From NCBI GenBank assembly GCA_041495205.1, contig JBGQCF010000001.1, positions 64,429 to 128,428 of the forward strand: 64,000 nt of DNA, in the 5' to 3' direction. Position 1 is the first letter of the stretch, and each line of letters begins with the position of its first letter. Positions 23,263 through 37,699 of the stretch are shown in pieces. A program made the translations under genes and the position numbers. The notes beneath the pieces were generated by a model. That model was given only the letters and a program-made list of their open reading frames with translations. It was not told the origin of the DNA and did no database searches. This stretch comes from Gammaproteobacteria bacterium (lineage in GTDB: Bacteria > Pseudomonadota > Gammaproteobacteria > Burkholderiales > JAHFRG01).

Positions 23263-25161
23263 TCATCCGTTAATCCCTACTTCTGAGACTAATTTACGCC
23301 ATCGCGGCAACTGGTTGTCCACCCAGAAAAAGTCGCCAGCCGCAGGAGGAAATTCGTTGCGCCTACCTGCCTGCAGCGCGTGCGCCAATTCTTCAGCCGT
23401 GCTCGCAAACCGTATGCCCCCAACCCCGCGCAAAGGACTGTGATTGAAGTCCTCGTCATCAAGAAAAATCACTACGGACAAACCAGCCAGTAAGGCATCC
23501 AACCCGGCAGAGGAACTATTGCTGGAGAATGCCAAATCAAAATTCGGCATGATCTCAGCCAAAGGCGCATCCGTCAGCTCAAATGAAAGAGTTGGACAAT
23601 CCTCCCTTTCAATTGGGCAGACCGGGTGTGGTTTAAGCGTCAAGGATATTTCTGTATCTATCAAATGGGATGCGGCTTCAATACAACGGAGCATTTTGAG
23701 GGTTTGCTTGAAAGTGAAATCGCCAAGAATCAGAACTTTCTTCTGCAAGCTCTGAGCCTGGAGGCCCGCTGATGCCGGAGCATCGACAGGCTTCTTCAAC
23801 TTGCCGGAACCCAAAGCGGTCAAATATTGGAAACGCAAAGCCTCAACCTCGAGGAGTCGTTCAGGCGGATACCCCGCCTCGACGAATGCCTTCCAGGCCA
23901 TCGGGCCATTGACGGCCAAATGATTTGGTAATGGCTTAGCCCAGTTTCGCTTCGAAATCAAGCTGCGTGGGTCATCGAAGTTGTTCAAGTGCCAATAAAC
24001 CACGGTAGCATGCGGCACCCCGATAATTTCACCGTGTCCATGCCGTCGCCACGCGCGAAGCAGGGCACATTCCCAACCCTGATTCTCCCAAATATAAAGC
24101 CCGATTTTTTGGTTGGGCATGTTCTTGAGAGCGACATCGAAAAGCTCTACCCACAAACAGTTGCTAATAGCTGTTGAACCATTCAAAGAGGCTAGCCAAT
24201 CGCTTCGCAAGAGTGGCCATAGCCAGACAGCGGACCCCTTTGGATTGAAGGCGCGACTGATTTCCCTCAAGCGCCAGGAGACCGCATTGAGCCGGATCCA
24301 GTTTTTCAATGCCCGAAGCACAACGCTCCATGACAAGTATGTTTCCAGAAAGGTGTGATACCCCTGTTTGTAAGCATCATGATTAAACAGGCGCAGCCAG
24401 TTAAGGCCCGTCTTGACATCAGGAGTCCCAGGGCTGAGCAGAAAGTGGTGAATCCAGTTGGCACGCTTCCCGCTGTCTTGGAGAAGCTTCGGTAGCCCCT
24501 CCCATTGCCGGGGAGAGAAACGCCCCTTCGCACCGGAAGCCGGATCCAGATTAAAAAAGTATGAACACAGAAAGATGGTGTTGTTACCGGAAAACCATTG
24601 AGGCTTTTGGAGCTTGCGAAGCGGCCATCGCGTCACAAGATGTCTTAGGCTGATCAAGCCCTGCATTGAATATGGCAAGGCACGATAAAAGCTGCGCAGT
24701 GACCATTCCTGCCTGGATTTTTTCACCGGCCGCCAAATAAAGTTGATTCGAAGATTTTGGCATAACCTCCGGATTGCCTGAGCAAGGTTGCGATCAGAGC
24801 TGTCGAGAGTCAGCTCGGAGGGTTTCTCTTCAAGAAGAATTTCCTCCAGGGCCATCAAACGCAGACAACCATAAATTCGCGCCGATTTGAAAGGGCTTTT
24901 TTCAGACAACTGGGTCATCCACCAGAAGCTGAAGCCATCGCCCAGATCGAGATGCTCGACAATACGCTTGCCATCTATCTGGCTCTCACCCAGATCATGG
25001 ATAAATGCGAGGTACTTGGCCCTCAGGCGCTCGGCATGATCTTCCAGATATCGCGGGACAGAAGCGCCTGACGAACGATGGGCGTAGCTTTGCCAGTGCA
25101 ATACTTTTCCGATCGCACCAGGCGGATCGTGCTTATGATCCCAGACAATCACCGAAGCCAT
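23263..25161 (-). CDS. Large uncharacterised surface-carbohydrate biosynthesis protein (possible GT-B-like transferase)
   Basis: 632 aa with no motif I can assign firmly. The C-terminal region KKVLILGDFTFK...LKPHP...FDLAFSSNSSSAGLDALLAGLSVVIF looks like a Rossmann-type transferase end. An RefSeq-style 'surface carbohydrate biosynthesis protein' family may apply, but that is unverified. Confidence 0.4.
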   Translation of the reverse strand: MASVIVWDHKHDPPGAIGKVLHWQSYAHRSSGASVPRYLEDHAERLRAKYLAFIHDLGESQIDGKRIVEHLDLGDGFSFWWMTQLSEKSPFKSARIYGCLRLMALEEILLEEKPSELTLDSSDRNLAQAIRRLCQNLRINFIWRPVKKSRQEWSLRSFYRALPYSMQGLISLRHLVTRWPLRKLQKPQWFSGNNTIFLCSYFFNLDPASGAKGRFSPRQWEGLPKLLQDSGKRANWIHHFLLSPGTPDVKTGLNWLRLFNHDAYKQGYHTFLETYLSWSVVLRALKNWIRLNAVSWRLREISRAFNPKGSAVWLWPLLRSDWLASLNGSTAISNCLWVELFDVALKNMPNQKIGLYIWENQGWECALLRAWRRHGHGEIIGVPHATVVYWHLNNFDDPRSLISKRNWAKPLPNHLAVNGPMAWKAFVEAGYPPERLLEVEALRFQYLTALGSGKLKKPVDAPASAGLQAQSLQKKVLILGDFTFKQTLKMLRCIEAASHLIDTEISLTLKPHPVCPIEREDCPTLSFELTDAPLAEIMPNFDLAFSSNSSSAGLDALLAGLSVVIFLDDEDFNHSPLRGVGGIRFASTAEELAHALQAGRRNEFPPAAGDFFWVDNQLPRWRKLVSEVGING

Positions 25162-26057
25162 TACTGTGGCAACGGATCCAAGATAGCCAGGATTTCTCCA
25201 GGCAGCTTCAAGCGGTAGCGAAGCGCGCCGACATCATCAGATTTTCTTTTTCGAATGGAGAATGCTGCGAAACAAAGCCTTGCATAGGGTGTTACCGCCG
25301 TAACGGATGGCACTCCCCAGTAACCATACGCGTTAATTTCGGAAGGGTTGAACTTGAGAAGCTGCTGAATCAGGCCCTTTGCATTGAGAACGACATAGGA
25401 CGCGCGTTCACCCTCCATGATCCCGTCATAGTTGATAAATTGATAGGATCGATTGAAGTCACCACATCCTTCCTCGGCCGTCAGCCGGAAGGTTGAGACC
25501 AAATGACCGCCGGGAACAACGTGGTTCCAGGCCGCAGCCAGCATCTCGGAAAAACAAATATTCCAATCGACGCAACTGAGCGAAAAAACAACATCAAAGC
25601 GCTTGTCATGAAGCACATCCCGGCTTAAGTCTAATATATCCCCGCACAGGATATGTGCCTTGGGGTTCATTCTTCGCCCAGCCTCAGCGGCTGCCTGATT
25701 GATTTCCACGCCGGTGTAATTTTCAATTCCAAACCGGTCCCGGAGCGCCAGACCCAAGCCGCCACACCCGCAGCCTATATCGAGAATTGCGTCGTCACGA
25801 TCGAGACCCAGCTGGTCGATGATGACGCGTTCGGATTCATAGAACTGTTGCCATGCGACGCGATTCTGCGCGAAGTAGCGGGCCAGTCGATCCGTCTGAT
25901 AAACGATGTTTTTCACTGCTTCGGCGTGTTTCACTTGCGGGGAACGAGCGCTATTTGTAAAGGCTCCAGATTTCATCCGATGCCATGTGCTTTTCGACAA
26001 GCTTGATATCGTCCGGGCTATCGACTGAAAATGACTCAATGTATGGATAGGGCGCAA
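25161..26057 (-). CDS. Class I SAM-dependent methyltransferase
   Basis: ILDIGCGCGGLGLAL (motif I) and FDVVFSLS (motif II). The start is uncertain because the ORF overlaps the upstream gene by 107 nt, and Met-28 at 25976 is an alternative. Confidence 0.75.
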   Translation of the reverse strand: MRPIHTLSHFQSIARTISSLSKSTWHRMKSGAFTNSARSPQVKHAEAVKNIVYQTDRLARYFAQNRVAWQQFYESERVIIDQLGLDRDDAILDIGCGCGGLGLALRDRFGIENYTGVEINQAAAEAGRRMNPKAHILCGDILDLSRDVLHDKRFDVVFSLSCVDWNICFSEMLAAAWNHVVPGGHLVSTFRLTAEEGCGDFNRSYQFINYDGIMEGERASYVVLNAKGLIQQLLKFNPSEINAYGYWGVPSVTAVTPYARLCFAAFSIRKRKSDDVGALRYRLKLPGEILAILDPLPQ

Positions 26058-26721
26058 TGTACTGCCGAAAGGACATATCTAGAATGCGGTTACTGTCGCA
26101 GGCTTCGAGTTTTTCCAGGCGCGTCTCCGCATGCGCTGTAAACGCCTTGAGGTATTGCCAACGAAAAGCAAAAATACCGTAAATTCGACGCGCCATAAGG
26201 GCGGGAGAGAATTTGCCCTTGCAATAAGGAAGCGGTGCGCGAGACGTATAAAGCACCTCTCCGGCTTCGTTATGAATTATTTTGACGGTGTCAGGATTCA
26301 ACCATATCGATTCTTCAGTAATGTGCATTGCCAAGACCGTGCAGGGAATCGACGGATCTGCCCGCAGGGGAGAAACCACAGCATCGATCATGTCTGGCCG
26401 CATCATTGGCTCATCGCCCTGCACACACACGACAATGTCGCTGTCGCCAACAGTCTCCCCTAAGCGTTCAACCGCCTCTGCAACGCGATCAAGCGCTCGA
26501 GTGTGATGAGATCCAGTCATGACGACCGGGATGCCTTTCTTCTTTGAGAACTCTTCAATTTCATGGTCGCAGGTGGCCAACACCAGGTTATCCCATCCAC
26601 GGTACATTTTGGCGCGCAAGTAGACGTGCTCAACCATTGGACGGCCACGAATCGGATGCAGGGGCTTGCCAGGGAATCGCGAGGCCGCCATGCGTGCAGG
26701 TATGACACCAATTATTTTCAT
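25951..26721 (-). CDS. KdsB-like cytidylyltransferase (CMP-ulosonic acid synthetase family)
   Basis: MKIIGVIPARMAASRFPGKPLHPIRGRPMVEHV, VCVQGDEPMM and LEKLEACDSNRIL parallel E. coli KdsB blocks as I recall them (IIPARxxSxRxPGKPL, VQGDEPM, LExLEQLRxL). Confidence 0.75.
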   Translation of the reverse strand: MKIIGVIPARMAASRFPGKPLHPIRGRPMVEHVYLRAKMYRGWDNLVLATCDHEIEEFSKKKGIPVVMTGSHHTRALDRVAEAVERLGETVGDSDIVVCVQGDEPMMRPDMIDAVVSPLRADPSIPCTVLAMHITEESIWLNPDTVKIIHNEAGEVLYTSRAPLPYCKGKFSPALMARRIYGIFAFRWQYLKAFTAHAETRLEKLEACDSNRILDMSFRQYIAPYPYIESFSVDSPDDIKLVEKHMASDEIWSLYK

Positions 26722-27030
26722 TTTAATCTGTTAAAAATATGAAAGAGACTGGGCGAATCAAGATCCAGTAATTATTCAGCACGATTTTCGCCGGCTTTTT
26801 TAAAACGATATTAGTGGGCAACGGAATCCGCGGAGGTGGCCAAAACCACATGCTACTCGGGCCATTACGATCGTCCGAATGCCAATCCTAAATCGAATAT
26901 GCGCTAACCAGGGAACCTTATTTTTTCAACCCATTCTTTCCATGAAGCCTGATGTAAGTCTGGGTTGGATAAAGAACAATATGCTGCTCACACATGAGGA
27001 TTCTCTTGGGATCTGTTCCCGCTGTAATTC
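26722..27030 (-). promoter_or_regulatory. Largest intergenic gap inside the 21-35 kb gene block; candidate internal promoter region
   Basis: 309 nt with no credible ORF. On the minus strand there is a TTGATT-16 nt-TATTTT pair (26761-26756 / 26739-26734), but it lies only 12 nt from the ATG, so the assignment is weak. Confidence 0.2.
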
Positions 27031-28134
27031 TCAATTACTCGTTGGCAGATTTGTCCGATAGAGACGGGCCAGATCATTATCCAGCTGACCCAGTCGTGCA
27101 CTATCACCTGCAGTAGAAACGTTTACCCAGCTCTGAGTCTCATCGGCCAGGTAAAAGGAATTCAAGAGCTGAATCGTCGAGAGAGTGTCTTCATAGTTCA
27201 CAGGAAACGGCTTATCTTTTTCAAAGAACGCAAGAATCTCTTCGTATATCTTTACGTGACCATGACCATAGACATTTCCGGAGAAATCTTCTGAGTTCTT
27301 AGCGCAAGCCGCTGGATCCGGCGTATAGACCTGCAGTTCATTTACGGCAATTCCACCAATTTGTGCCAGACCGTTTTCGCAGACCAAAGAAAGACTCGCC
27401 TCATAATCAATAGGACGCGCGGCAGTGGTGACCTCAAGCGCGCCTATTGCCCCATTTTCAAACGCAATAGCGGCGGTAGCCGTATCCTCGACCTCGATAT
27501 CCACACCCAAAGTTCTGTGGATGCTGCAAACACGGCTAACGTCACCGCCCATGAGTTTGAGCAAGTCGATATGGTGAATACCCTGATTGGTCAGGCATCC
27601 GCCATCCATGGAAAATGTCCCGCGCCAAGGGGCCAGGTCGTAATAGCGTTGGGGCCGGCACCACCGGACACGCACCGCAACCAAACGTAACTGACCAAGT
27701 TCACCGTGTGCTAAACCCTGCAACACACGCTTTACCGCCAAATTATGGCGATTTTGAAATACAGCAAATATTTGAACACCCGCCGCTGCTGCTTTCGCAT
27801 ACGCTTCCTTCACCTGCGAAGGCTTCATGAAGGTCGGTTTTTCGACGATAACGTTTTTTCGGTATCGAGAGATGATATCCAGCGCATGCTCGTAGTGCAT
27901 ACCCGACGGAGTAACAATTGCTACAGTATTTATTTGTGGATTCTCTAATAGCATCTGATGATAATTTTCATAAGCCTTTGCGCCGAACTGCTCATGATAG
28001 GCTTTTGCTTTTTCAGGGATAAGGTCGCATACGGCAGTGAGCTCAACTCCTTCGGTTTGGGCAATTGATCGGCAATGGTGTCCTGAAACGCGCCCGCATC
28101 CAATAATGGCGACCTTGACGGCATTGTTCTTCAT
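27031..28134 (-). CDS. Gfo/Idh/MocA-family NAD(P)-dependent oxidoreductase
   Basis: VKVAIIGCGRVSGHH N-terminal Rossmann motif, EKP motif (VIVEKPT), and a C-terminal alpha/beta domain. Confidence 0.8.
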   Translation of the reverse strand: MKNNAVKVAIIGCGRVSGHHCRSIAQTEGVELTAVCDLIPEKAKAYHEQFGAKAYENYHQMLLENPQINTVAIVTPSGMHYEHALDIISRYRKNVIVEKPTFMKPSQVKEAYAKAAAAGVQIFAVFQNRHNLAVKRVLQGLAHGELGQLRLVAVRVRWCRPQRYYDLAPWRGTFSMDGGCLTNQGIHHIDLLKLMGGDVSRVCSIHRTLGVDIEVEDTATAAIAFENGAIGALEVTTAARPIDYEASLSLVCENGLAQIGGIAVNELQVYTPDPAACAKNSEDFSGNVYGHGHVKIYEEILAFFEKDKPFPVNYEDTLSTIQLLNSFYLADETQSWVNVSTAGDSARLGQLDNDLARLYRTNLPTSN

Positions 28135-29219
28135 GATTTGCGTCCCACGGCCCGTTTTATGAGATCAACCACCTGGGCCATGATCGCACGGGGCGCGACA
28201 GTGAATCTGCTGTAGCCCGCAAGGCAAGGGTGATCAAATGATGCTCGGTAATATACTTTGCTTGAGAGGACGGAGTGTATGGCCTGACTCTGCCCGCCAA
28301 AAGCAACATGCAAGAAGTTACCCGATGTTGGCAAAACCCTGAGACCCAAAGAGCGCATTTCCTCAACAAAAAAGGCCTTCCCTTCGTTGATTCTGACCAC
28401 TGCCTGCGCCATTTCGGATGTCTTATCCAGCATCCTGGACATGAACTCCACAGCAATCGTACTCACCTCGTACATTGGCCGCATTTTGTGCAGAAGAGCA
28501 ATCGTTTCCGGGTGAGCCACGGCGTATCCGATACGAAGACCGGCGGCACCCCACGCCTTGGCAAATGTTCTCGCTACAATCAGATTGCGGGAAGTCGTCC
28601 AGGATACTGCCGACCATTCGTAAAATGGATGATAGGCCTCATCCAGCAGCAAGACCGCCTCTACTGCCTCGCATTCCGCAAGAATCTTGCGCAGCACATC
28701 TGGCGCAAGGACTGTGCCGGTGGGACTGTCCGGGTTAGGCAGGCATAACAGCTTCGGTTTGCGTTTGCGCAGAGCACTAATAATGGCGGCTGGATCCAGG
28801 CGTGGGCCGGCTTCTGTGCCTTCATATTCAATCGGGCATACCTCTGCTCCGAACATCTGGCTATAAACTGGATACATCGCAAACGTCGGGACGGTATGGA
28901 TTACGCCGTCCCCATCCTCGACAAATGCCTCGAACGCGGAGCGAATCGCCCCATCGCTTCCCGGCGTCAAAAGTAAACATTCCGGGCTCACCCCGACCCA
29001 GTGCGCAAGCTTCCGATAGGTTTCTCCCGCTTCCGGATAACTGGCCAATGCCAAAGGCGGAATTTGCTGGAGCACTTCACCCGATAGCGCCATTAGGACA
29101 GGATCCAGATTCTCGTTCTTATCAAGCCACAAACGGTCCAAATTTCTGGGAATTGAATTCAGAGCGCTGGGTCGCAGCAGCTGTGGATTCAAAAGAGATC
29201 GTCTGGGACGTATGCTCAT
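28131..29219 (-). CDS. Class I/II PLP aminotransferase, histidinol-phosphate aminotransferase (HisC)-like
   Basis: LDKNENLDP, PNPDSPTG, LDEAY and RTFAKAWGAAGLRIGY (PLP-lysine block) are HisC-family signatures. Confidence 0.8.
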   Translation of the reverse strand: MSIRPRRSLLNPQLLRPSALNSIPRNLDRLWLDKNENLDPVLMALSGEVLQQIPPLALASYPEAGETYRKLAHWVGVSPECLLLTPGSDGAIRSAFEAFVEDGDGVIHTVPTFAMYPVYSQMFGAEVCPIEYEGTEAGPRLDPAAIISALRKRKPKLLCLPNPDSPTGTVLAPDVLRKILAECEAVEAVLLLDEAYHPFYEWSAVSWTTSRNLIVARTFAKAWGAAGLRIGYAVAHPETIALLHKMRPMYEVSTIAVEFMSRMLDKTSEMAQAVVRINEGKAFFVEEMRSLGLRVLPTSGNFLHVAFGGQSQAIHSVLSSKVYYRASFDHPCLAGYSRFTVAPRAIMAQVVDLIKRAVGRKS

Positions 29220-30181
29220 TGAATTGTTGCTTCATTAACATTAGGGAGAGTTGGGATATCGTTTTCGTCCAACCCATTGATTGCGGCGCGCCCCATGGCC
29301 AGAATCGCCTCCTCGGCGCTGCCGCCAATGTGCGGTGTAACGAGGAAGTTGGGAAGCGCCAGCAGTTCTTTATCCTGGGGCGGCTCTACTGCGAACACAT
29401 CGAAGGCTGCGGCCGCCAGGCGCTTGTCCTGCAGCATCTGCTTCAAGGCCACCTCGTCGACCAATCCTCCCCGGGCGGTGTTGATTAGCACGGCAGTCGG
29501 CTTCATTATGCCAAGCCTGCGGGCATCAAGCATGCCACGGGTGCTGTCATCCAAAGGCACGTGCAGGGTAACGATGTCGGATCGCGCCAAGAGAGTCTCG
29601 AGGCTTACCAGTTCGACACCATGGGCCGCGTAGAAATCGGGATAATCCCGAATGTCGTTCACCAAAATTGGACAATCGAAGGCCTGCAACAGAGGCACTA
29701 AGTCCTTGCCAATATGGCCGCAGCCAATGATGCCAACGGTTCGTCCAGTCAAATGACCTCCGACATGTTGCCGCCATGTACCCGATAAGATTTCACGATA
29801 GGCTGCCGGCACGTGGCGCAGCATGGCGATCGCGAACGAGATGACCAGTTCCGATACCGAGCGGCGGTTAACCCCGCTGGTCCAGCCCAAGCGTTTGCCA
29901 TAGGCACGCATGGCGGCCATGTCAATCATGTCCAGCCCAACGCCATATTTGCTGATGACTTTGAGCCCGGGCAGTCGGGACAATACCGACTCGTCAATTG
30001 TTTCAAGGGCGGTGATCGCCTTGTCATGCCCTCTCAGAAACTCGACCAGGCTGTCCCCCTTTAACTGGAGGCCCGCGTCGTTGAAGGTGACCTGCTGATA
30101 ACGCGCCAGCAATTCGGCGCGCAGAATGGGGTTCCTGGAAAAGGAGCGGGAGCAGACCGCGACTTTGACTGTAGGACTCAT
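29216..30181 (-). CDS. D-isomer-specific 2-hydroxyacid dehydrogenase (PGDH-like)
   Basis: GIIGCGHIGKDL NAD motif, NTARGGLVDE, and PHIGGSAEEA (catalytic His region). Confidence 0.8.
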   Translation of the reverse strand: MSPTVKVAVCSRSFSRNPILRAELLARYQQVTFNDAGLQLKGDSLVEFLRGHDKAITALETIDESVLSRLPGLKVISKYGVGLDMIDMAAMRAYGKRLGWTSGVNRRSVSELVISFAIAMLRHVPAAYREILSGTWRQHVGGHLTGRTVGIIGCGHIGKDLVPLLQAFDCPILVNDIRDYPDFYAAHGVELVSLETLLARSDIVTLHVPLDDSTRGMLDARRLGIMKPTAVLINTARGGLVDEVALKQMLQDKRLAAAAFDVFAVEPPQDKELLALPNFLVTPHIGGSAEEAILAMGRAAINGLDENDIPTLPNVNEATIQ

Positions 30182-31263
30182 CCATTAAGCTCCGCGAGAA
30201 ACTTTTCGCACTGAGAACGAAAGGTTTTGTCGGGTGGGACCTGTACTTGCTGGATTGCCGCGTCGGCGCCCACCGGGAAAATCAGACAAAGCATAGTGCT
30301 CGTATTCTTCTTGTCCTTCATAAGCGCGGAGAGCATTACATCGACTGGAATCGGAGTTGCCGCATATTTTTCATAATTCTTGCGCAGAATTGGATGCATC
30401 CGATGGTAATGCTCCACTGGCAACAGCCCACGCTTTACAGCAATGTAATTGGCCATATCCATGCCAATCGTGACAGCAATGCCATGCGGCACCGCGTAAT
30501 GAGTCGCTGACTCGATGGCGTGACCAAAGCTGTGGCCGTAATTGAAGATGTTGCGAATCCCGCGGTCGAACTCATCCTTCTCAATGAAAGGCTGCTTTAT
30601 GAGTAATGCCGCCCGGATATACCGCAGGAGCACATCTCGAGTTGAAAACAACTGATCGAAATCAGCCGCCAACCGATCAAACGCAGCTATCCCGTCTATC
30701 GCATGCACCTTGATGATTTCCCCAACACCAGAATGAATGTCCTTGTCTTCAAGAGTTTCAAGAAATCCTGTATGGATGAATATGGTCTGAGGGGGATTGA
30801 AGGTACCGAGAATATTTTTGGTAGGACCAAGGTTAATGGAGCTTTTTGAACCAATGCACGAATCTGCCTGGGCCAGCAGCGTCGTCGGTACAAAGCGCCA
30901 GGGAAGGCCTCGCAGTAGCGTGCTTGCAATGAAACAGGTGATGTCCTGAACAATGCCGCCACCGACCGCAACAAGCGTGTGATCACGCCGCACCTTATTC
31001 AGCACCAGGCGCTCCAAAACGGGTATCGTCTTTTCTATCGATTTATTCTCCTCGATTGCCTCAATAACAATGGTGTTGGGATGATCAAGAATGGCACGGA
31101 GATCAGATTCATATAGTCGCGCCACATTGGCATCAATCAGGAAATGAGGCTCACCCTCGAACAGTCGAGCGGGATCAGACAATAGTGTGTTGTCAAAAAC
31201 TACTGAATATGGCCCTCTGTGAGATTGAATCACCAACTGCTCAGACACGACTAAAGCCCCCAT
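30178..31263 (-). CDS. 3-dehydroquinate-synthase-family enzyme (sugar-phosphate cyclase / group III ADH superfamily)
   Basis: GGGIVQDITCFIASTLLRGLPWRFVPTTLLAQADSCIGSKSSINL, GHSFGHAIES and HGIAVTIGM parallel the DHQS blocks GGGVxGDxxGFxAAxxxRGxxxxQxPTTLLAQVDSSVGGK, GHTFGHAIE and HGEAVAxGM. Confidence 0.75.
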   Translation of the reverse strand: MGALVVSEQLVIQSHRGPYSVVFDNTLLSDPARLFEGEPHFLIDANVARLYESDLRAILDHPNTIVIEAIEENKSIEKTIPVLERLVLNKVRRDHTLVAVGGGIVQDITCFIASTLLRGLPWRFVPTTLLAQADSCIGSKSSINLGPTKNILGTFNPPQTIFIHTGFLETLEDKDIHSGVGEIIKVHAIDGIAAFDRLAADFDQLFSTRDVLLRYIRAALLIKQPFIEKDEFDRGIRNIFNYGHSFGHAIESATHYAVPHGIAVTIGMDMANYIAVKRGLLPVEHYHRMHPILRKNYEKYAATPIPVDVMLSALMKDKKNTSTMLCLIFPVGADAAIQQVQVPPDKTFRSQCEKFLAELNG

Positions 31264-31957
31264 CTATGGCGATGTTCTGGCCGGCGAGGTAAGTGTTTTC
31301 TTCGCTGGCAAGCCATAGGACCAAGCGAGCAATTTCGTCGGCCTGTCCGAGCCGACGTGCCGGCACTCTGGAAACAAGGGACTGTATCCCTGCTTCGCCA
31401 AGCACACGGCGGGTCAATTCAGTATCAATAATGCCGGGCGCTATGCTGTTTGCGATGATGCCATCGGCTGAATGTTCAGCAGCCAAAGCCAGCGTCATAC
31501 CGTCTATTGCAAATTTGCTGGTGGAATAGGACGCCCGGTATTCCTTGCTGATCTTGCCCCAGATGGATGACACATTAACTATGCGGCCCCATCCTTTGCT
31601 TTTCATTGCCGGTATTGCCGCTTGGCAAAGCAAAAAAGGCGCAAAGACATTCACCTGCTGAATAGACAGAAAATCATCCGGCGCAATCTCCACAAATGGC
31701 GCGATCTTGTTGATGCCAACATTATTTACCAGCACGTCGGGTGCGGCACGGCGCACGCACTCGGCGCAGGCCCTGATTTGTTCAACGTCCGAAAAGTCCG
31801 CGGCGACCCACTCCTGGCACGCATCATCCGTTTCGTTAATCTTGCGGGTGCGCGTGCCTATCACCCATGCGCCTTCGGCCCGAAACGCTTGCGCAATCGC
31901 CCGCCCTATCCCCCGGGAGGCGCCAGTGACAAATACTTTTTTATCCGAAAAACGCAT
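31241..31957 (-). CDS. Short-chain dehydrogenase/reductase (FabG-like)
   Basis: VFVTGASRGIGRAIA and YSTSKFAIDGM (YxxxK). Confidence 0.8.
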   Translation of the reverse strand: MRFSDKKVFVTGASRGIGRAIAQAFRAEGAWVIGTRTRKINETDDACQEWVAADFSDVEQIRACAECVRRAAPDVLVNNVGINKIAPFVEIAPDDFLSIQQVNVFAPFLLCQAAIPAMKSKGWGRIVNVSSIWGKISKEYRASYSTSKFAIDGMTLALAAEHSADGIIANSIAPGIIDTELTRRVLGEAGIQSLVSRVPARRLGQADEIARLVLWLASEENTYLAGQNIAIDGGFSRV

Positions 31958-31969
31958 ATTTTTATTTAC

Positions 31970-32596
31970 CTATACAGTCCGGATATACCGCAACAGGTAT
32001 GCTCCCACGAGATGGTCAATGACCATGTGGGCATCCTCTGCGGGGCCGTATTCCTTGAGTTCCGTTGGAATATGGATTCCCTCGTCGGCCAGAGTTTTCA
32101 TCTTGCCGCCATCGAAGGCGGTAATAGCCACGGTCTTGATGCCTGCCGAGCGGGCATGGTCAAAGGCCTTGAGCAGATTGGGCGAATTGCCGGAGGCTGA
32201 AATGCCGACCAGCACGTCCCCCTTCTTTCCCAGAATCCGCAGTTGTCTGACGAAAATTTCTTCGTAGCCAAAATCATTAGCCAATGCGGTAATGATTGGA
32301 ACGTTGTCGGTCAGGCTTATCGCGCGGAACGGTTTGTCATAGTGATTGGTGCCAATTGCAAGGTCATTGGCAAAGTGACTCGCGGTGGCGGCACTGCCGC
32401 CGTTACCGATAAAGAATACCGTGGCACCTCGTTCGCGCGCGTCCAGCAAAGTTTGAATAAAGCGCCCAACATCCGCCGTATCGACACGCTGAAGGACAGA
32501 TTGCAGATAGTTAAGGTAGGCGACGGCGAAAGCGACCGGATCAGTGGTGAAAAAACGATCAATGTTGTTCATGGCTGTATGGGTTTGGGATGTCAT
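31970..32596 (-). CDS. SIS-domain sugar-phosphate isomerase, GmhA-like
   Basis: The ORF-track start is 32695. I prefer Met-34 (32596) because the extension overlaps the upstream gene. FFIGNGGSAATASHFANDL and GISASGNSPNLL are GmhA/SIS blocks. Confidence 0.75.
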   Translation of the reverse strand: MTSQTHTAMNNIDRFFTTDPVAFAVAYLNYLQSVLQRVDTADVGRFIQTLLDARERGATVFFIGNGGSAATASHFANDLAIGTNHYDKPFRAISLTDNVPIITALANDFGYEEIFVRQLRILGKKGDVLVGISASGNSPNLLKAFDHARSAGIKTVAITAFDGGKMKTLADEGIHIPTELKEYGPAEDAHMVIDHLVGAYLLRYIRTV

Positions 32597-33611
32597 AGGA
32601 TTGACGCCAAATAGGATCTGCGTAGTAGATTTTGAAAACGAGTTGCATGGTGCGCAAGGCATCTTCGGAGGTGCCGCTCTGCACCGGTCTGTCATTCAGG
32701 ATGCAGTCGGCGAACGCGGCAATTTCTGCGTCCCAGGAGAGATCTTTATTGTAGCGGGTAACCTGCTCCTGGGGATCGCCCTGGTCATTGTCGGGGTCCG
32801 CCTGCACTACGGTCAAAGTTTCGGCGCCGTAACTTTTGGTCCCCGACAGAATCCCGCCGAGGATGAGACTGCCTCGCTCGAGGTTGATATCGAGATGAAA
32901 GCGGTGCCGCCATTGGGTGGCCGAGGAATTGAGCATGCCGACAACGCCTTCGGCCGTCCGCATCAGGGCATAGGCATTGTCTTCCACATCATAGCCCCAG
33001 TGGCTGTTAGAGATGAAGCTCTGAACCTCGTTGAACTCACCTCCGAACAGGCGCATGAGGTCAACCATGTGTATGCCCTGATCAAGCAGCACCCCGCCCC
33101 CGGCAATCTCGCGTTTAGTGCGCCAGTCCCGCTGGTCGAAAGTAATCAGCTTCGCCTTGCCATAGACGCCACGCATATTGATGACTCGACCGAGCTCGCC
33201 GGAGCGCAGGATTCTGAGGGCATCCTGCACGGACTCGTGGTAGCGATGATTGAAGCCATACATGAGCTTGAGGGCGGGATACCGGCGCTCGTGGGCGATG
33301 ACCCGCAGGACGTCTTCGACATTGCGCCCCGGCGGCTTCTCACAAAAAACATGCAATCCGGATTCGAGGCCGGCAATCGTAACTTCCGCGGCAATATCGT
33401 TGGTCATGCAGACTATCAGAATGTCCAGGTCTTCCGTCAGCAAGCGTCGGTAAGCCCTGTAATAGCGAATGCCATCGGCGAGCGTGCCCTCGCCATCAAA
33501 GGTTTGGTCGCACACCGCCACCACGCGCAGACGCGGATCTCGAACGATGCAGTCCTTCCGGCGCTTGCCAACCACGCCGAACCCGGCTATGCCGACTTTT
33601 AGTTGAGTCAT
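32559..33611 (-). CDS. Gfo/Idh/MocA-family oxidoreductase
   Basis: LKVGIAGFGVVGKRR Rossmann motif and VFCEKPP motif. The 352-aa + ORF 32544..33602 is its antisense shadow. Confidence 0.8.
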   Translation of the reverse strand: MTQLKVGIAGFGVVGKRRKDCIVRDPRLRVVAVCDQTFDGEGTLADGIRYYRAYRRLLTEDLDILIVCMTNDIAAEVTIAGLESGLHVFCEKPPGRNVEDVLRVIAHERRYPALKLMYGFNHRYHESVQDALRILRSGELGRVINMRGVYGKAKLITFDQRDWRTKREIAGGGVLLDQGIHMVDLMRLFGGEFNEVQSFISNSHWGYDVEDNAYALMRTAEGVVGMLNSSATQWRHRFHLDINLERGSLILGGILSGTKSYGAETLTVVQADPDNDQGDPQEQVTRYNKDLSWDAEIAAFADCILNDRPVQSGTSEDALRTMQLVFKIYYADPIWRQSYDIPNPYSHEQH

Positions 33612-33691
33612 TGTGCCTCGATTTCCTCTCCGGCTAGTACGATAGTCTGTCCGGGTTTTCTGGGCTGAGCCGGTGGCAGGCAGACTAACAC

Positions 33692-34537
33692 TTACTTAAC
33701 CCAGATCTGATTGAAAGTATGCTTGGCCGAGCCCGTATCAGAATCGAAATAATCCGCATGCGTTTTTTTCTTAAGAGTAAAGCCCGTTTCCTTCAGATAC
33801 ATGCTCGCATTGTCGGCCTGAGCGGTGAATTTATCGTTTATTTCAATCAGAATACCTTTTACCTTGAGCAGGATAGGTTTCCCGCCTTTGAGAATCAAAT
33901 GCTCGATGCCATCGACATCCATCTTTATATAGTCAGGCTGGGGAATCTTCAAACGCTCGACTGCGTCGCACATGGAAAGGCCGATGGTTGGAAACTCGAA
34001 GACTTTACGCATGACTTCACCATCATGGCCATATGACTGACCAAAAGTGGACAGCGCGCCACCCCACTCGGTGTTCGTCATGTTGAGCTTGCTGGCAGCC
34101 AATGTCTCAGCAAGTGGTAGCGGAACGATGGTGATTTGCTCCGTAAGGTCATTGAGAAAGATATTGCGGGCCAGCAGCTCCAGATTGAAGACCGACGGTT
34201 CAAAGGCAAACACCTTGCACCCTCTCTGCTTGGCTGCGTAGCAAGAATAAAGACCAACGTTCGCCCCGATATCCCACACAACCGAGCTATTGGGTATGCT
34301 ATCGATCCATTCGAGGGTCTCTGGTTCCTTTGTAGAAAAAGTGTCGGCACGGTATCTGTTGAGCGCATTGGGGATGGCAAAGCTCAGGTTCAAACCCAGG
34401 TGATTCACCTTTTGTGTTCGGTTCATCGCATTACTGATGATCTGCGCGTAAACATAGCGCCCAACGAAATTTTTTTCCAGAAGGGCAACCGCCCAATTGA
34501 TTAGCCGCTTGAGACCCGATTTGATAATTTGTTTCAA
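33692..34537 (-). CDS. FkbM-family methyltransferase
   Basis: VWDIGANVGLYSCYAA, FAFEPSVFN and IKMDVDGIEHLILKG are FkbM-family blocks. The ORF begins with TTG in the track. Confidence 0.8.
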   Translation of the reverse strand: MKQIIKSGLKRLINWAVALLEKNFVGRYVYAQIISNAMNRTQKVNHLGLNLSFAIPNALNRYRADTFSTKEPETLEWIDSIPNSSVVWDIGANVGLYSCYAAKQRGCKVFAFEPSVFNLELLARNIFLNDLTEQITIVPLPLAETLAASKLNMTNTEWGGALSTFGQSYGHDGEVMRKVFEFPTIGLSMCDAVERLKIPQPDYIKMDVDGIEHLILKGGKPILLKVKGILIEINDKFTAQADNASMYLKETGFTLKKKTHADYFDSDTGSAKHTFNQIWVK

Positions 34538-34851
34538 TTTATAACACCTATTTTGGTAACGTTTCGCCGTAATTTCCTAATGCGTTAAGGCCTCCTTAGA
34601 AAAAACGCTGCTTAACGCGGAAACTGCGGCATTGAGAAGGGCCTCCGGGCTATTAGCAAAATTTATTAATGACGGCGAATCGCCAAAGTCATCTCGGACT
34701 ATTCTGCCTGGGCCGACTGTCCCGGGTGGGACAACGCCAGATAGAAAACGCGATAACCCAATTTCCTTAATATCCGGGCGACAAAATCGAGATGCGAGGG
34801 CAGCGCTGCAAATATGATATCCGCTTTCTCGTGACCCATACCTGGCATGGA

Positions 34852-35769
34852 TTACGCTTCTATTGCTTTGAAGAGTACGGCGCGGAAATCCTGGCAGGAC
34901 AGGATACAGGTCTCACCGGCTGATTGATGTTTCGCGAAATACGCGGCAATGTTTTCGCGGATGGTGGCGCGCGTGAGATGCTCGATTTCCACCTGAAATG
35001 CCCTGCCCAAAGACATCGTGTCGATGACGATCACGCTTTTCTTCGCAATCCGCACGAATTCGTCGACGATTCTTTGATGGCTCGACTGGGTCTGCAGTAT
35101 GGTCGGTTCGAGCAGGGTGGAGAAAACGTGGCAGATAAGAACATGATCCACACTTTTATCGGTGAAAGATCCCAGAAACTCGAAATCGAGGATGCTGCCT
35201 TGACTTAGAGTCCGGTTGACGCTCCCGTCCACGCCAGCTTTGGCCACCCGGAGGCAGCGCTCGTCGATGTCGAAGCCTGTGTACGGCGAACGGGGATACC
35301 TGCTCAAAATGAATTTCAGGTTTTGTCCTTTGCCGCAGCCTGCGTCCAGAAAGCTTTCGCCGTCCTTGTAGCCGATCGTCGCCGGATAGCTATCCAGAAA
35401 CAACTGCAATCTGCTGTCCAAACCGGCGAACTGATTCATGCACTCCTGCTTTGAAAGCTTATCCAGATTCAGATAGCCTCTGCCGCCCTTCGCGTAATGC
35501 ACGAGATTTTGCGTTTTGTATACCTGCAGGGTGTATTCGGTGCGCGCTTCCTTCCAGATGGCGCGAATGGCGCGCCAAAACGACGCCTGCAACGCGAACA
35601 GCGTCCCGAGGGCAGATGGTCGCCCGAGAACTGGATTTTCGACGGACCGCAGAAATTGCTGATCGCTTATCCAGATTTCGAAGTGAACCGGCAAACGGAC
35701 GAGCACCTGAAACAGCGGCTTCAGTTTGCTTGAATACTGATCACGAAGGAGCTGCAGTCGCTTTTTCAT
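34852..35769 (-). CDS. Class I SAM-dependent methyltransferase
   Basis: FLDAGCGKGQNLKFIL motif I, GFDIDERCL, and VDHVLICHVF. Confidence 0.7.
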   Translation of the reverse strand: MKKRLQLLRDQYSSKLKPLFQVLVRLPVHFEIWISDQQFLRSVENPVLGRPSALGTLFALQASFWRAIRAIWKEARTEYTLQVYKTQNLVHYAKGGRGYLNLDKLSKQECMNQFAGLDSRLQLFLDSYPATIGYKDGESFLDAGCGKGQNLKFILSRYPRSPYTGFDIDERCLRVAKAGVDGSVNRTLSQGSILDFEFLGSFTDKSVDHVLICHVFSTLLEPTILQTQSSHQRIVDEFVRIAKKSVIVIDTMSLGRAFQVEIEHLTRATIRENIAAYFAKHQSAGETCILSCQDFRAVLFKAIEA

Positions 35770-35800
35770 TGTGACTATGCGATGGGAAGCGGCGACAATG

Positions 35801-36055
35801 TCACCCCACCAATCCCCACCCCATCGGTGTTCCCTTTTTCACATCCCGATTCACCCGGCGGCCGAGGAGCATGTCGTAATATTTTGGCGCCAGTCCCATG
35901 CCCTGGCGGCGCTCAGGCAGCAGGCGACATGTGGCCGACCACAGGGAGACCGTCGCGCTTCGCATACCGCCTCGAAGAGCGCGTAGCCGAAAGATCTGTT
36001 GATTAGAAAGGACCCGGCGCAGTACGGCTTTCATTTTTCCACCGATTCCAGCCAT
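35801..36055 (-). pseudogene. 3' remnant (SAF-domain end) of a second NeuB-family ulosonic-acid synthase gene
   Basis: C-terminal GMGLAPKYYDMLLGRRVNRDVKKGTPMGWGLVG is identical at 28/33 positions to the C-terminus of the intact synthase at 38342..39385 (GMGLPPKYYEMLLGRRVNQDVKKGTPMRWELVG). Nucleotide similarity over 35801-35905 vs 38342-38446 is about three quarters by eye, and nothing upstream resembles the TIM-barrel part. Confidence 0.6.
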
Positions 36056-37699
36056 CTAAATGTGTGCCACCTTCAATTGAAAATTGACATGAGAACAAAG
36101 CCAGGCCTTAAGCTGGTCCGGCCCCGAGATAATAGGGATTCCATGGGCTGCCCTGTCATCGCTTTGCAAGTGACTGGTAGGATCATAATACACGGAAGGC
36201 TTGCCCAGCTCCCTGGCGATCAACGCCGTCGAAGTAAACGGCATGGAAATCACCGCGCAACTCGACTCGATAACCCGCAAGGCAGAGATTTCTGGTTCAA
36301 CCAACACAATGCCCCCTCGCTTGGATAGCCTGTCTGCGAAATGCCGGTATTGCGGATGCGCAATGTTGCCAATTCTTCGTTTGCGCTTCCACAACATAAC
36401 TACATCCAACTGGTGAGTGGCATCGGCAATGTGCTCCAGAAACCTTTCACTCGTGGCAGGAATGTAGAATTCGTAATCGGCACCCAATAAGCAGTAACTT
36501 GACAGCCTGTGAGGCGTGATATCGAAAACTGCCACTCCGGGCCTTTCTGGTTGTGGCATCTCGACGGCACTACTCTGGAAGTAGATCGGGCCGACGACGC
36601 TTACGTTAGCGCTCTCGCCGACGGCACGGCGGACGAAATCCGCTTGATACTCATCCCATACCAGATAGTGAGGCCAATTCATGGCCTGCCAGCCATACAT
36701 GAGTTTTGGGTAGCCATTTGGTCGCTTAAAAGATTCGCAATTAGTTGAGTAGAAATAAAAGGTGATCCGAGAACCATGCTTTTCCGCTTCGTACGTCCAG
36801 AGTGGCCGGTAGATCCAGCCCGAATTGTGGAACAGATAATCCCGAGCCAAACTGTTGGGCTCATACGTGCGTATCGTTTCGGCTAAAGATGCTTCGCCAA
36901 GCATAAGCGCATGCCACCAACGGCCGCGCAAAAGGTCGAAAACTGCAAGTGCACCTGACGCAATACTCCATCCAATGAAGCGCACCAATGCACCAATTTG
37001 AGTCAATGGCGAGATGGCTGATGGCACCGGGATTACGGGTATGCCGTCAACGGCACTCGGAGCGACACCCTCGACGCTGTGACATAGCGTATCGAGTTCA
37101 CCAATTCTGCCAGGCCATTGCTGATACCAGGTCACAATGTCGTGGCTGCGTCCGTCCTTGCAAGGCTGAGGCAGGTTATCCGCAGTGAGTGTGCCAAAAT
37201 ACGCAAACCTTCCTGGCGCTCGAAACGAGGGACGGATTATTTCCTTCACGCTGCCGGCAAGTCGCCTTGCGATTAACACCATCCCGTAAGCGAGAAACAA
37301 GGCAACAAAACCGTTCCACGCTAACGCCGACCGAATCTTTGCGACCTTGAAACCGTGCTGCTCGACAACTCGACGCCATTCAGGCGGCAGAGGGTGAACC
37401 ACATCGGAGCCAGGCTTTCCGAGCGCGTAGAGCAGTGCTTTATTGAGATTCAACCCACCCACACGAACCAACAGATACTGCCGGATGACAAGTTCCGCAT
37501 CCGTTAAGCCGGCGCCAAAAATGCGCTTTGAAGCGCGGCCCTTGCATTGGTTTAACCGGGTGTTTGTTAAAGCTTCTTTAACGGCCGTAATTCTGCCAAG
37601 TTGATTCGACACTTTCAGGGACCGATAGCCTCGCATCATGCGCCTAAGACGCCGGCGTCCCCTGCGTTGCAGTAAATCAGTAATCAAAGGTATTTTCAT
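36056..37699 (-). CDS. Uncharacterised polysaccharide-biosynthesis protein carrying a PFTS motif
   Basis: 547 aa. AVISMPFTSTALIARELGKPSVYYDP contains the PFTS motif that I recall as the name-giving feature of a RefSeq family ('polysaccharide biosynthesis PFTS motif protein'). Its biochemical role is unknown to me. Confidence 0.45.
   Translation of the reverse strand: MKIPLITDLLQRRGRRRLRRMMRGYRSLKVSNQLGRITAVKEALTNTRLNQCKGRASKRIFGAGLTDAELVIRQYLLVRVGGLNLNKALLYALGKPGSDVVHPLPPEWRRVVEQHGFKVAKIRSALAWNGFVALFLAYGMVLIARRLAGSVKEIIRPSFRAPGRFAYFGTLTADNLPQPCKDGRSHDIVTWYQQWPGRIGELDTLCHSVEGVAPSAVDGIPVIPVPSAISPLTQIGALVRFIGWSIASGALAVFDLLRGRWWHALMLGEASLAETIRTYEPNSLARDYLFHNSGWIYRPLWTYEAEKHGSRITFYFYSTNCESFKRPNGYPKLMYGWQAMNWPHYLVWDEYQADFVRRAVGESANVSVVGPIYFQSSAVEMPQPERPGVAVFDITPHRLSSYCLLGADYEFYIPATSERFLEHIADATHQLDVVMLWKRKRRIGNIAHPQYRHFADRLSKRGGIVLVEPEISALRVIESSCAVISMPFTSTALIARELGKPSVYYDPTSHLQSDDRAAHGIPIISGPDQLKAWLCSHVNFQLKVAHI

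Follow-up and report, generated by a model that had tools for sequence, protein, structure and literature searches.

A conserved gene cassette proposed to form a CMP-activated acid sugar by an oxidative route, in a surface-polysaccharide locus of a Burkholderiales bacterium

The subject of this analysis is a gene cassette in a 64-kb stretch of DNA (positions 64,429 to 128,428 of contig JBGQCF010000001.1, assembly GCA_041495205.1; hereafter the window) from a gammaproteobacterium of the order Burkholderiales. The whole window is one single-strand surface-polysaccharide locus, encoding Wzx, Wzy/ligase-type proteins, a WecA-like initiating transferase and many glycosyltransferases, together with a pseudaminic-acid module that includes PseC and PseI. 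An earlier note on this DNA had drawn attention to ten open reading frames (ORFs) ending in a KdsB-like cytidylyltransferase and had suggested a pathway to a novel amino or carbocyclic sugar of the ulosonic type. The ORF families were assigned by profile searches with Pfam and NCBIfam, and the coordinates and families given for the ten, all of them on the minus strand, agree with the ORF list and with both databases. The ulosonic reading is the one favoured here, and in more general terms the cassette very probably leads, by oxidation of a heptose phosphate, to a new acid sugar that is activated with cytidine monophosphate (CMP) and destined for a surface glycan. The genes are listed below in the order of their transcription.

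36056-37699, minus strand: PFTS-motif polysaccharide biosynthesis protein, 547 aa (TIGR04417/PF27878, 380.8 bits, cut-off 100)
34852-35769, minus strand: class I S-adenosylmethionine (SAM) methyltransferase, specific to the window (Pfam Methyltransf_31/25/11)
33692-34537, minus strand: FkbM methyltransferase, putatively tailoring (TIGR01444, 76 bits, cut-off 37.7)
32559-33611, minus strand: Gfo/Idh/MocA oxidoreductase 1, Gfo1 (Pfam)
31970-32695 (ORF; probable gene 31970-32572), minus strand: GmhA-like SIS isomerase (TIGR00441 gmhA, 131 bits)
31241-31957, minus strand: classical short-chain dehydrogenase/reductase, SDR (Pfam adh_short_C2, 168 bits)
30178-31263, minus strand: AroB-like NAD+/metal enzyme (TIGR04425, 471.3 bits, cut-off 400)
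29216-30181, minus strand: D-2-hydroxyacid dehydrogenase, 2HADH (Pfam 2-Hacid_dh_C, 185.6 bits)
28131-29219, minus strand: HisC-type class I/II aminotransferase (Pfam Aminotran_1_2, 143.5 bits)
27031-28134, minus strand: Gfo/Idh/MocA oxidoreductase 2, Gfo2 (PDB 3q2k, E 3e-56; 3q2i, E 3.5e-55)
25951-26721, minus strand: KdsB-like CMP-transferase of a cassette-specific subfamily, type A (NF003952, 213 bits, cut-off 193)
25161 to about 25976 (ORF to 26057), minus strand: class I SAM methyltransferase, putatively tailoring, called at 271 aa (Pfam)
23263-25161, minus strand: TIGR04326 'surface carbohydrate biosynthesis protein', 632 aa (537.9 bits, cut-off 250)

The cassette genes are translationally coupled through start/stop overlaps, and the ATGA overlaps reported earlier at 30178-30181, 29216-29219 and 28131-28134 are present in the sequence, as is a spacer of 309 nt (26722-27030) between Gfo2 and the KdsB-like gene. 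The unit as first drawn took in ten genes, all of which are there, but the conserved unit reaches further on both sides, spanning 23263-37699, with a methyltransferase and then the TIGR04326 protein downstream and the PFTS-motif protein upstream.

Recurrence and modularity of the cassette

Relatives were collected by scanning one genome per species with the AroB-like protein, which gave 74 loci (designated here by L numbers), and the gene content of 72 loci was scored by tblastn with competing queries; metagenomic loci came from a separate scan in which the KdsB-like protein was the query. The core, defined as Gfo1, SDR and AroB-like gene together, is found in 44 of the 72 loci from species-level genomes, and the gene set also recurs in many metagenomic contigs, so that a survey of neighbourhoods, as proposed in the earlier note, finds the set travelling as a unit. 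This recurrence is far above chance. Among the 44 core loci the SIS gene is found in 29 and the 2HADH gene in 36, Gfo1 is 37-88% identical to the window's copy, and the FkbM gene (42-77% identity) and the TIGR04326 gene occur in 13 each, the latter also in most type A metagenomic loci. The SDR adjoins the AroB-like gene in 65 of 72 loci, and in the window its 3' end overlaps the AroB-like start. [quoted passage not shown] Conservation thus holds for the core, but not for the first methyltransferase (34852-35769), which has no homologue in the 74 related loci and whose slot is held in Leptospira (L078) by a 6-phosphogluconolactonase (Pgl)-like gene.

The carriers include Beta-, Gamma- and Alphaproteobacteria, Nitrospirota, Actinomycetota, Elusimicrobiota, Gemmatimonadota, Bdellovibrionota, Bacteroidota, Spirochaetota, SAR11 and others, and among the named hosts are Leptospira (in a surface-polysaccharide gene cluster), Legionellaceae, Coxiellaceae and nitrifier-related lineages; the cassette is horizontally mobile and has spread across many phyla. 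The cultured species Leptospira stimsonii (L078) carries genes for the PFTS protein, the Pgl-like protein, FkbM, Gfo1, SIS, SDR, the AroB-like enzyme, 2HADH, aminotransferase, Gfo2, cytidylyltransferase, methyltransferase and TIGR04326 protein, and from FkbM to TIGR04326 these are 11 consecutive genes in the order of the window, with 50-78% amino acid identity; the cassette lies at about 522.6-534.5 kb of contig QHCS01000002.1 of assembly GCA_003545875.1, and L. kmetyi is another culturable carrier. Close homologues of the whole cassette therefore exist, all of them without an assigned product. Neither the gene set nor TIGR04425, TIGR04326 or TIGR04417 is described in any paper that full-text literature searches brought up, and the specific curated labels for the cassette proteins are these same three 'hypothetical equivalog' or uncharacterised families, in keeping with the initial statement that no characterised pathway has this set of enzymes. 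One oddity of the survey concerns a binned Nitrososphaeria archaeon (L039) and a binned Dehalococcoidia (L040), whose contigs agree in the order of gene families and, to the same percentages, in their identity to the window queries; a binning error probably accounts for at least one of the two taxonomic assignments.

The cytidylyltransferase departs from KdsB in a consistent manner. It misses the kdsB equivalog TIGR00466 (145.1 bits, cut-off 155.2), and whilst the motif VQGDEPM, containing the catalytic QGDEP with Gln98 and Asp100, is found in all cassette-linked cytidylyltransferases, the KdsB motif LRHIGIYAYRA has become RRIYGIFAFRW and EQLR has become DSNR, a signature kept throughout type A. 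E. coli His181 and Tyr185, which are Ile and Phe in the window protein, are replaced in all cassette-linked KdsB-type enzymes of both kinds, with the positions assigned by motif counting and conservation judged on two solved KdsB sequences. In E. coli KdsB, Tyr185 and Gln98 form hydrogen bonds with O5 of Kdo (PMC12199768). That the gene is simply the housekeeping kdsB, a possibility the earlier note had raised against itself, is ruled out by this active-site signature together with strict co-occurrence with Gfo2, which accompanies type A KdsB in 10 of 10 full-flank loci; the enzyme belongs to a cassette-linked subfamily.

Altogether five kinds of cytidylyltransferase serve the core, namely two KdsB subfamilies and, in other lineages, three NeuA-like kinds. 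The second KdsB subfamily (KdsB', 35-38% identical) is accompanied by an HpcH/HpaI aldolase in 11 of 11 loci and usually by a zinc-ribbon methyltransferase, and in the loci of this variant (L002-L004, L007, L012, L019, L022, L023, L025-L027, L029 and L045) Gfo2 and the aminotransferase are absent. The aldolase was considered as a general ulosonic-acid synthase and rejected, because three of the five cytidylyltransferase variants, including that of the window, are without it; speculatively, it might act in the KdsB' variant as a C3/C4 epimerase, through enolisation or retro-aldol chemistry. More distant pairs of AroB-like enzyme and SDR (type B, 31-44% identity) occur with no Kdo-type cytidylyltransferase in L042, L046, L048, L055, L057-L059, L061-L065, L068 and L072-L074, in hosts that include Prochlorococcus, Pelagibacteraceae, Acidobacteria and Coxiellaceae. 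Their partners are a distant HpcH-like protein and a thiamine-diphosphate enzyme of 600 aa resembling acetolactate synthase, with genes for CDP-glucose 4,6-dehydratase, a GT2 and a GtrA-like protein nearby. The type B loci probably make a different product, and cyclisation looks more likely there.

It may be asked whether such genes constitute one pathway at all. The window is a mosaic locus of 64 kb with recombination scars, so that a housekeeping kdsB and a few oxidoreductases could have come together by chance, and AroB-like cyclases with aminotransferases are typical of aminocyclitol antibiotics, which would point to a diffusible natural product. Both suppositions are very unlikely in view of the fidelity with which KdsB keeps company with Gfo2, KdsB' with HpcH and the core with a cytidylyltransferase across many phyla, of the translational coupling, and of a genomic context in the related loci that is always glycan assembly, with Wzx, Wzy, glycosyltransferases and an initiating transferase.

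A further kind of modularity bears directly on function. In five otherwise syntenic cassettes from the metagenomic scan (L085, L100, L109, L110 and L122) the SDR and AroB-like pair is absent and a phosphatase of the inositol monophosphatase (IMPase) family lies between SIS and 2HADH (for example at 4940-5686 of L109). The replacing enzymes are 248-262 aa long, with the motif W-x-x-D-P-L-D-G-T and scores of 101 bits for HisN and 97 bits for fructose bisphosphatase/IMPase. All five cassettes keep Gfo1, SIS, 2HADH, aminotransferase, Gfo2 and KdsB, the last four of 2HADH, aminotransferase, Gfo2 and KdsB being 55-86% identical to those of the window. On a neighbour-joining tree of KdsB they fall in at least four separate places among 42 AroB-bearing cassettes, and the motif CDSNR is found in five of five and the exact string RIYGIFAFRW in three of five. 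The scattered positions and the retained KdsB signature indicate that pair and phosphatase have been exchanged repeatedly without retuning of the downstream enzymes. The pair thus looks like a step of phosphate removal and the two products would seem to differ little; read most simply, SDR and AroB-like enzyme together do what a phosphatase would do and remove a terminal phosphate. In L100, and probably also in L085, an extra methyltransferase-like gene coding for about 440 aa follows the phosphatase.

The enzymes and a proposed pathway

The AroB-like protein matches TIGR04425 over residues 12-358 (profile positions 1-347 of 348), a model labelled 'hypothetical equivalog' and 'AroB-related putative sugar phosphate phospholyase (cyclizing)'. 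It does not reach the aroB equivalog TIGR01357 (256.5 bits, cut-off 305), and its score for Fe-ADH_2, 22.1 bits, is below the cut-off of 28. With the numbering of 3-dehydroquinate synthase (DHQS) fixed by an ungapped match to residues 241-296 of the Aspergillus nidulans enzyme (1dqs), the equivalents of D146, K152, N162, E194, K250, R264, N268, H271, H275 and H287 do not vary among the 69 homologues compared, and that of K197 is present in the window protein and is His in 10 of the 69. Every DHQS catalytic or binding residue examined is thus kept, which disposes of the concern, voiced at the outset, that the protein might lack them. K250 and R264 are taken to hold the carboxylate of the DHQS substrate, and K152, N162, N268 and H275 its phosphate; the substrate of the AroB-like enzyme should accordingly be a sugar acid phosphate. 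The mark of 2-deoxy-scyllo-inosose synthase (DOIS) is missing, in that Asn241 of the window protein aligns with position 243 of BtrC (by way of 2d2x residues 217-275), where BtrC has Glu243, presumably the DOIS residue at the position of DHQS Asn268. In comparison with the sedoheptulose-7-phosphate cyclases, the window protein keeps K250 and R264, the match to ValA being weak at that point (E 0.028). The genomic context of the gene is glycan assembly and not shikimate genes, and the enzyme is proposed to be a phospho-lyase that eliminates phosphate.

The genes on either side suggest where its substrate might come from and where its product might go. The best solved relatives of Gfo1 are glucose-fructose oxidoreductase (1e-19) and aldose-aldose oxidoreductase, both of which oxidise C1 of an aldose, and Gfo1 is proposed as a heptose-7-phosphate 1-dehydrogenase that converts the aldose to a 1,5-lactone. 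A gene of the Pgl family (PF01182, 209 bits) lies in the cassette beside Gfo1 in 8 of the 44 core loci, and Pgl-like genes are found also in L078 (Leptospira stimsonii), L083, L109 and L118; six other core loci have a PF04199 'putative cyclase' protein, never in the same locus as the Pgl-like gene. The presence of a Pgl-like gene in several loci argues for a route from aldose phosphate through lactone to aldonate phosphate. The SIS protein probably begins at the ATG at 32572, which would make it 200 aa long, the length found in L078 and L109; it scores below the 209-bit cut-off of TIGR00441 and is proposed to isomerise sedoheptulose-7-phosphate to heptose-7-phosphate. In NCBIfam, 2HADH comes closest to SerA, glyoxylate reductase and PdxB but reaches the cut-off of none of the three, and its proposed role is oxidation of the C2 hydroxyl of a heptonate to a 2-keto (ulosonic) acid.

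Gfo2 aligns with 3q2k over residues 5-329 of 367 and matches the NCBIfam model for UDP-N-acetylglucosamine 3-dehydrogenase at 4e-26. Both 3q2k and 3q2i are, we take it, WlbA, 3-dehydrogenases of UDP-N-acetylglucosaminuronic acid that work with a transaminase, and Gfo2 is proposed to be a ring-hydroxyl dehydrogenase making the keto group for transamination. The aminotransferase occurs in 10 core loci, only where Gfo2 and type A KdsB are found, and in the Pelagibacteraceae loci L049, L053 and L054 it is a DegT-like gene (family F8, which includes the PseC of the window) that adjoins Gfo2. These associations bear on a further explanation, built on an analogy drawn in the earlier note, that the KdsB-like enzyme makes CMP-Kdo and that the AroB-like protein and the aminotransferase act on it as KdnB and KdnA do in forming the 8-amino derivative Kdo8N in Shewanella. 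A superficial parallel does exist, in that a KdsB homologue and a class I aminotransferase are combined with an enzyme of the DHQS/iron-containing alcohol dehydrogenase (Fe-ADH) superfamily, and the KdsB-like protein would be annotated by PGAP, through its subfamily model NF003952, as a Kdo cytidylyltransferase. The analogy is nevertheless a poor one and the explanation extremely unlikely, since the supposed counterpart of KdnB is of AroB type by its scores (471 bits for TIGR04425, 22 against a cut-off of 28 for Fe-ADH_2) and has all the phosphate-binding residues, the aminotransferase keeps to Gfo2, which is homologous to sugar-nucleotide 3-dehydrogenases, and not to the AroB-like gene, the KdsB-like protein lacks the O5-binding Tyr and the neighbouring His, and the cassette has no kdsA, kdsC or kdsD.

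For the transfer of the sugar two candidates are encoded at the ends of the unit. The AlphaFold2 model of the TIGR04326 protein (predicted local distance difference test score, pLDDT, 86.6; predicted TM-score 0.88) finds GT-B enzymes in a Foldseek search of the PDB at E values of 6e-7 to 1e-4, and the protein has the motifs KPHP and FSSNSSS; it is a candidate transferase for the CMP-sugar, and an identical protein is encoded on contig JBGPUF010000001.1 of assembly GCA_041491045.1. The model of the PFTS protein (pLDDT 83.6) matches OtsA, TagF, TarL and CalG3 at 5e-6 to 1e-4 and makes this protein a candidate glycosyltransferase of predicted GT-B fold, the TM-scores of the GT-B matches being only 0.3-0.55 for both models. 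Distant PFTS homologues lie upstream of the cassette in L005, L006, L008 and L009, and a PF27878 protein is found there in Leptospira (L078). The downstream methyltransferase follows KdsB in type A loci at 38-70% identity (gene call in L075/L076). In L036, L038 and L051, where TIGR04326 is absent, an MptE-like/DUF115 protein (PF01973, family f49) lies near the core; PF01973 is the family of the flagellin 'motility accessory factor' proteins, and its placing suggests that such a protein may stand in as transferase for a CMP-sugar of the same kind. Another family, of about 465 aa (f51) and with no Pfam match, is found near the core in L039-L041.

The scheme that we lean towards, with rather less assurance than attaches to an oxidative route in general, has as its product an aminated, methylated 7-deoxy-hept-2-ulosonic acid that is a true CMP glycosyl donor. 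The GmhA-like SIS enzyme would convert sedoheptulose-7-phosphate to heptose-7-phosphate, and Gfo1 would oxidise C1 to a lactone, to be opened by the Pgl-like lactonase or spontaneously to heptonate-7-phosphate. The AroB-like enzyme would then carry out only the first half of dehydroquinate-synthase chemistry: transient oxidation at C5 with NAD+, beta-elimination of the 7-phosphate and re-reduction of C5, after which the enol would relax to 6-keto-7-deoxyheptonate. Ring closure would not follow at this point because C2 is still a hydroxyl and there is no carbonyl to attack. The coupled SDR may reduce the C6 ketone, and 2HADH would oxidise C2 to give a 7-deoxy-hept-2-ulosonic acid that retains its 3-hydroxyl and closes to a pyranose. 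The KdsB-like enzyme would activate this acid sugar with CTP, Gfo2 and the aminotransferase would exchange one ring hydroxyl for an amino group, the methyltransferases would tailor the sugar, and the TIGR04326 and PFTS proteins, one or both, would transfer it into a surface polysaccharide of the Wzx/Wzy type. The phosphatase-bearing cassettes would make the 7-hydroxy counterpart. Within this scheme we infer the identity of the substrate, the order of the third to fifth steps, the position of amination and the choice of GT-B transferase; the protein families, their conservation and modularity, the active-site residues, with the loss of His181 and Tyr185, and the phosphatase swap are direct data, and the GT-B folds come from models. 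The five lineages of CMP-transferase, with GT-B or MptE-like/DUF115 proteins as neighbours, argue for a true glycosyl donor.

A number of points weigh against this scheme. The order of the AroB-like and 2HADH steps is not fixed by sequence, and if 2HADH acts first the resulting 2-keto acid phosphate, similar to 3-deoxy-D-arabino-heptulosonate 7-phosphate (DAHP), should cyclise. To our knowledge every characterised member of the AroB family is a cyclase, and we know of none that stops before ring closure; the NCBI label of TIGR04425 reads 'cyclizing', and in the type B loci the HpcH-like aldolase would supply a 2-keto substrate, which suggests cyclisation there. What speaks for a seven-carbon origin is only a GmhA similarity below the cut-off, the SIS gene is absent from three actinobacterial loci, and the HpcH/HpaI aldolase of the KdsB' variant has no role in the scheme. 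No such hept-2-ulosonic acid was found in the literature searched, and we recall none among known glycan structures.

Several of these points would be accommodated by a carbocyclic product, an idea also present in the earlier note. If 2HADH acted first, the AroB-like enzyme could perform the full DHQS reaction on a 3-hydroxy, DAHP-like hept-2-ulosonate-7-phosphate and the SDR would reduce the ring ketone, leading to an aminated, methylated pentahydroxy-cyclohexane-carboxylic ('carba-ulosonic') acid with CMP on its tertiary hydroxyl; TIGR04326 or PFTS would then act as a pseudo-glycosyltransferase forming a non-glycosidic bond, and the phosphatase-bearing sisters would make the pyranose counterpart. 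Before amination this carbocycle and the 7-deoxy-hept-2-ulosonic acid would have one and the same formula, C7H12O7. The full set of DHQS residues is invariant, cyclisation is what all characterised AroB-type sugar-phosphate enzymes are generally known to do, as the name of TIGR04425 implies, and it is established DHQS chemistry that the ring closes spontaneously when a 2-keto group is present together with the C6 enolate. The aldolase-like gene of type B could feed in the 2-keto substrate, and the fold matches of TIGR04326 include VldE, which is a pseudo-glycosyltransferase of GT-B type (ranks 16, 35 and 46), even if ordinary GT-B enzymes are the better matches. The exchange of the pair for a plain IMPase-family phosphatase in five syntenic cassettes weakens the idea: with the KdsB signature and the downstream enzymes unchanged, the same KdsB, dehydrogenase, transaminase and transferase would have to handle both a pyranose bearing CH2OH and a carbocycle with no side chain. 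Chemical reasoning adds that a CMP ester of a tertiary carbocyclic alcohol, with no ring oxygen to stabilise a cation, would be a poor donor, and five independent lineages of CMP-transferase are easier to picture for an ordinary 2-ulosonic acid. A carbocycle is improbable for the cassette of the window.

It is also conceivable that the oxidative logic is correct and some of its details are not, for instance that the starting sugar is not a C7 compound, that the AroB-like enzyme acts on a lactone or a CMP-linked intermediate, or that amination precedes activation. This has a modest chance of being right. The GmhA match of 131 against 209 bits leaves room for another substrate, L013, L014 and L016 are without SIS, 2HADH is absent from 8 of the 44 core loci, which have extra Gfo-like genes, and the HpcH aldolase is unexplained. 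Set against this, SIS is present in 29 of the 44 and in all close relatives of the window's cassette, and it can be reasoned that a C6 substrate, once terminally deoxygenated, gives no pyranose 2-ulosonic acid. The 7-deoxy-hept-2-ulosonic acid remains the product favoured here.

Recombination remnants and other parts of the window

Two short segments within the conserved unit are best understood as remnants of former arrangements.

35801-36055, minus strand: ORF of 84 aa with a copy of the pseI 3' end (its 3' 105 nt or so, 35801-35905, match pseI)
26921-27026, minus strand: remnant of the 3' end of a methyltransferase gene, within the spacer 26722-27030 (tblastx, blastn)

The first had been read as a decayed NeuB-family synthase and hence as a sign that the cassette once was, or through pseI in trans still is, a NeuB-dependent pathway. 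The fragment is real: the last 35 aa of the ORF are identical to residues 394-428 of the window's PseI in 29 positions (83%; BLASTP), DNA alignment of 35801-35905 with the 3' end of pseI (38342-38450) gives a mean identity of 84% over 132 columns, and the ORF as a whole has no Pfam match. The inference drawn from it is probably wrong, as only the last 100 nt or so of pseI are duplicated and some complete cassettes, that of Leptospira stimsonii among them, have no NeuB within 10 kb; on these grounds a part for pseI in the pathway, whether in trans or in its ancestry, was rejected. The cassette contains no NeuB-family synthase condensing phosphoenolpyruvate (PEP), and so does not belong with the NeuB-dependent pathways of neuraminic, pseudaminic and legionaminic acids. 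NeuB/PseI genes directly precede the cassette in L014, L022, L023, L052 and L056, and the ORF is therefore best read as the scar of the recombination that brought the cassette in, and not as a functional gene.

The spacer between Gfo2 and KdsB holds no promoter or terminator signal above shuffled controls, and its reading as an internal promoter or terminator was discarded for this reason and because it contains the remnant of a methyltransferase (tblastx, 67% over 33 aa, E 3e-12; blastn, 78% over 59 nt). A methyltransferase gene lies intact between Gfo2 and KdsB in L005, L008 and L069, from Rhodocyclaceae and Sulfuritalea. To judge from the sequence, the spacer is the deletion scar of such a gene.

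Elsewhere in the window an RmlD-like ORF at 48469-49107 (212 aa, rmlD profile positions 82-280) is truncated at its 5' end, with the N-terminal nucleotide-binding part missing, and is 48% identical to an intact paralogue at 22329-23255; it is probably a pseudogene or another remnant of recombination. The PseI ORF as listed (38342-39628) has an N-terminal extension of 94 residues and overlaps the PIG-L gene at 39397-40086 by 232 nt, and its true start is probably downstream, since the PseI profile begins at residue 94. The pseudaminic-acid part also contains, at 44413-46440, a 675-aa fusion of a CTP_transf_3 CMP-transferase domain with a class III aminotransferase resembling glutamate-1-semialdehyde aminomutase, and its neighbours, a GNAT fusion protein, an ATP-grasp enzyme, an epimerase, a CysQ/IMPase-like phosphatase and a PIG-L deacetylase, give it the look of an unassigned module for a modified nonulosonic acid. 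Two proteins (49114-50484 and 57879-59411) have the TIGR04372 'glycosyltransferase' domain, and at E ≤ 1e-10 NCBIfam yields no match for the ORFs at 53260-54531 and 55053-56273; all four belong to the same very large locus and are likewise uncharacterised.

Relation to known systems

The closest formal counterpart of the proposed pathway is that to CMP-Kdo (KdsD, KdsA, KdsC and KdsB), with which it shares a SIS isomerase, the removal of a phosphate, anomeric activation by a member of the KdsB family and transfer by a GT-B enzyme. The cassette differs in that it has no PEP-condensing synthase, would proceed by two oxidations, at C1 and then at C2, and would retain the 3-hydroxyl; its isomerase resembles GmhA and not KdsD, and phosphate would be removed by an AroB homologue with an SDR and not by a phosphatase. 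The first oxidation and what follows recall the steps of Zwf and Pgl and those of PdxB and SerA, in which an aldose phosphate passes through a lactone to an aldonate phosphate with the help of a Pgl-family lactonase and a D-2-hydroxyacid dehydrogenase yields a 2-keto acid, but the C1 dehydrogenase here belongs to Gfo/Idh/MocA, the presumed substrate is a heptose and the outcome a nucleotide sugar.

With the sugar-phosphate cyclases, that is DHQS, DOIS, 2-epi-5-epi-valiolone synthase (EEVS), desmethyl-4-deoxygadusol synthase (DDGS), 2-epi-valiolone synthase (EVS) and EboD, the AroB-like enzyme shares its fold and, as in DHQS, the residues for NAD+, metal, phosphate and carboxylate, and the core of oxidation, elimination and reduction is probably the same. 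Unlike the known cyclases it belongs to TIGR04425, resides in glycan loci, always in company with an SDR, and is interchangeable with a phosphatase. A purely functional analogy is offered by the nucleoside diphosphate (NDP)-hexose 4,6-dehydratases, which also form a terminal methyl group by transient oxidation with NAD+, beta-elimination and reduction, a logic that underlies 6-deoxyhexoses and 9-deoxy nonulosonic acids; their fold is unrelated, and in the cassette the leaving group would be phosphate and not water and the substrate not yet linked to a nucleotide.

The amination step has two partial parallels. In the formation of 2,3-diacetamido-mannuronic acid, WlbA/WbpB, to which Gfo2 is homologous (3q2k and 3q2i), is likewise paired with a transaminase, WlbC/WbpE, but the partner in the cassette is of the HisC and not the DegT type, and Gfo2 would presumably act on a heptulosonic acid, either free or linked to CMP, and not on a UDP-uronic acid. 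Shewanella Kdo8N is also an acidic ulosonic sugar aminated by an oxidoreductase and a class I aminotransferase near a KdsB homologue, but there a terminal alcohol is oxidised by KdnB, an enzyme of the Fe-ADH type, whereas the aminotransferase of the cassette pairs with a Gfo/Idh/MocA enzyme.

If the improbable carbocyclic alternative were true, the product would be the first CMP-carbasugar and, among bacterial surface glycans, the first residue to be a carbasugar acid, and its attachment a new kind of pseudo-glycosyl transfer. If the favoured reading of a 7-deoxy-hept-2-ulosonic acid is true, there would be a second, oxidative route to CMP-activated ulosonic acids, which requires no PEP-dependent synthase and yields 3-hydroxy acids of seven carbons, and a member of the dehydroquinate-synthase family would serve as a terminal 'deoxygenase', expelling phosphate with no ring closure. 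The annotation of the family would then have to change, proteins of the TIGR04425 type being annotated at present in many genomes as 3-dehydroquinate synthase or 'cyclizing phospholyase', and the TIGR04326 and PFTS-motif proteins, two uncharacterised families, would gain their first functional handles. Given the wide horizontal spread of the cassette, its product is probably a common but so far unseen surface antigen.

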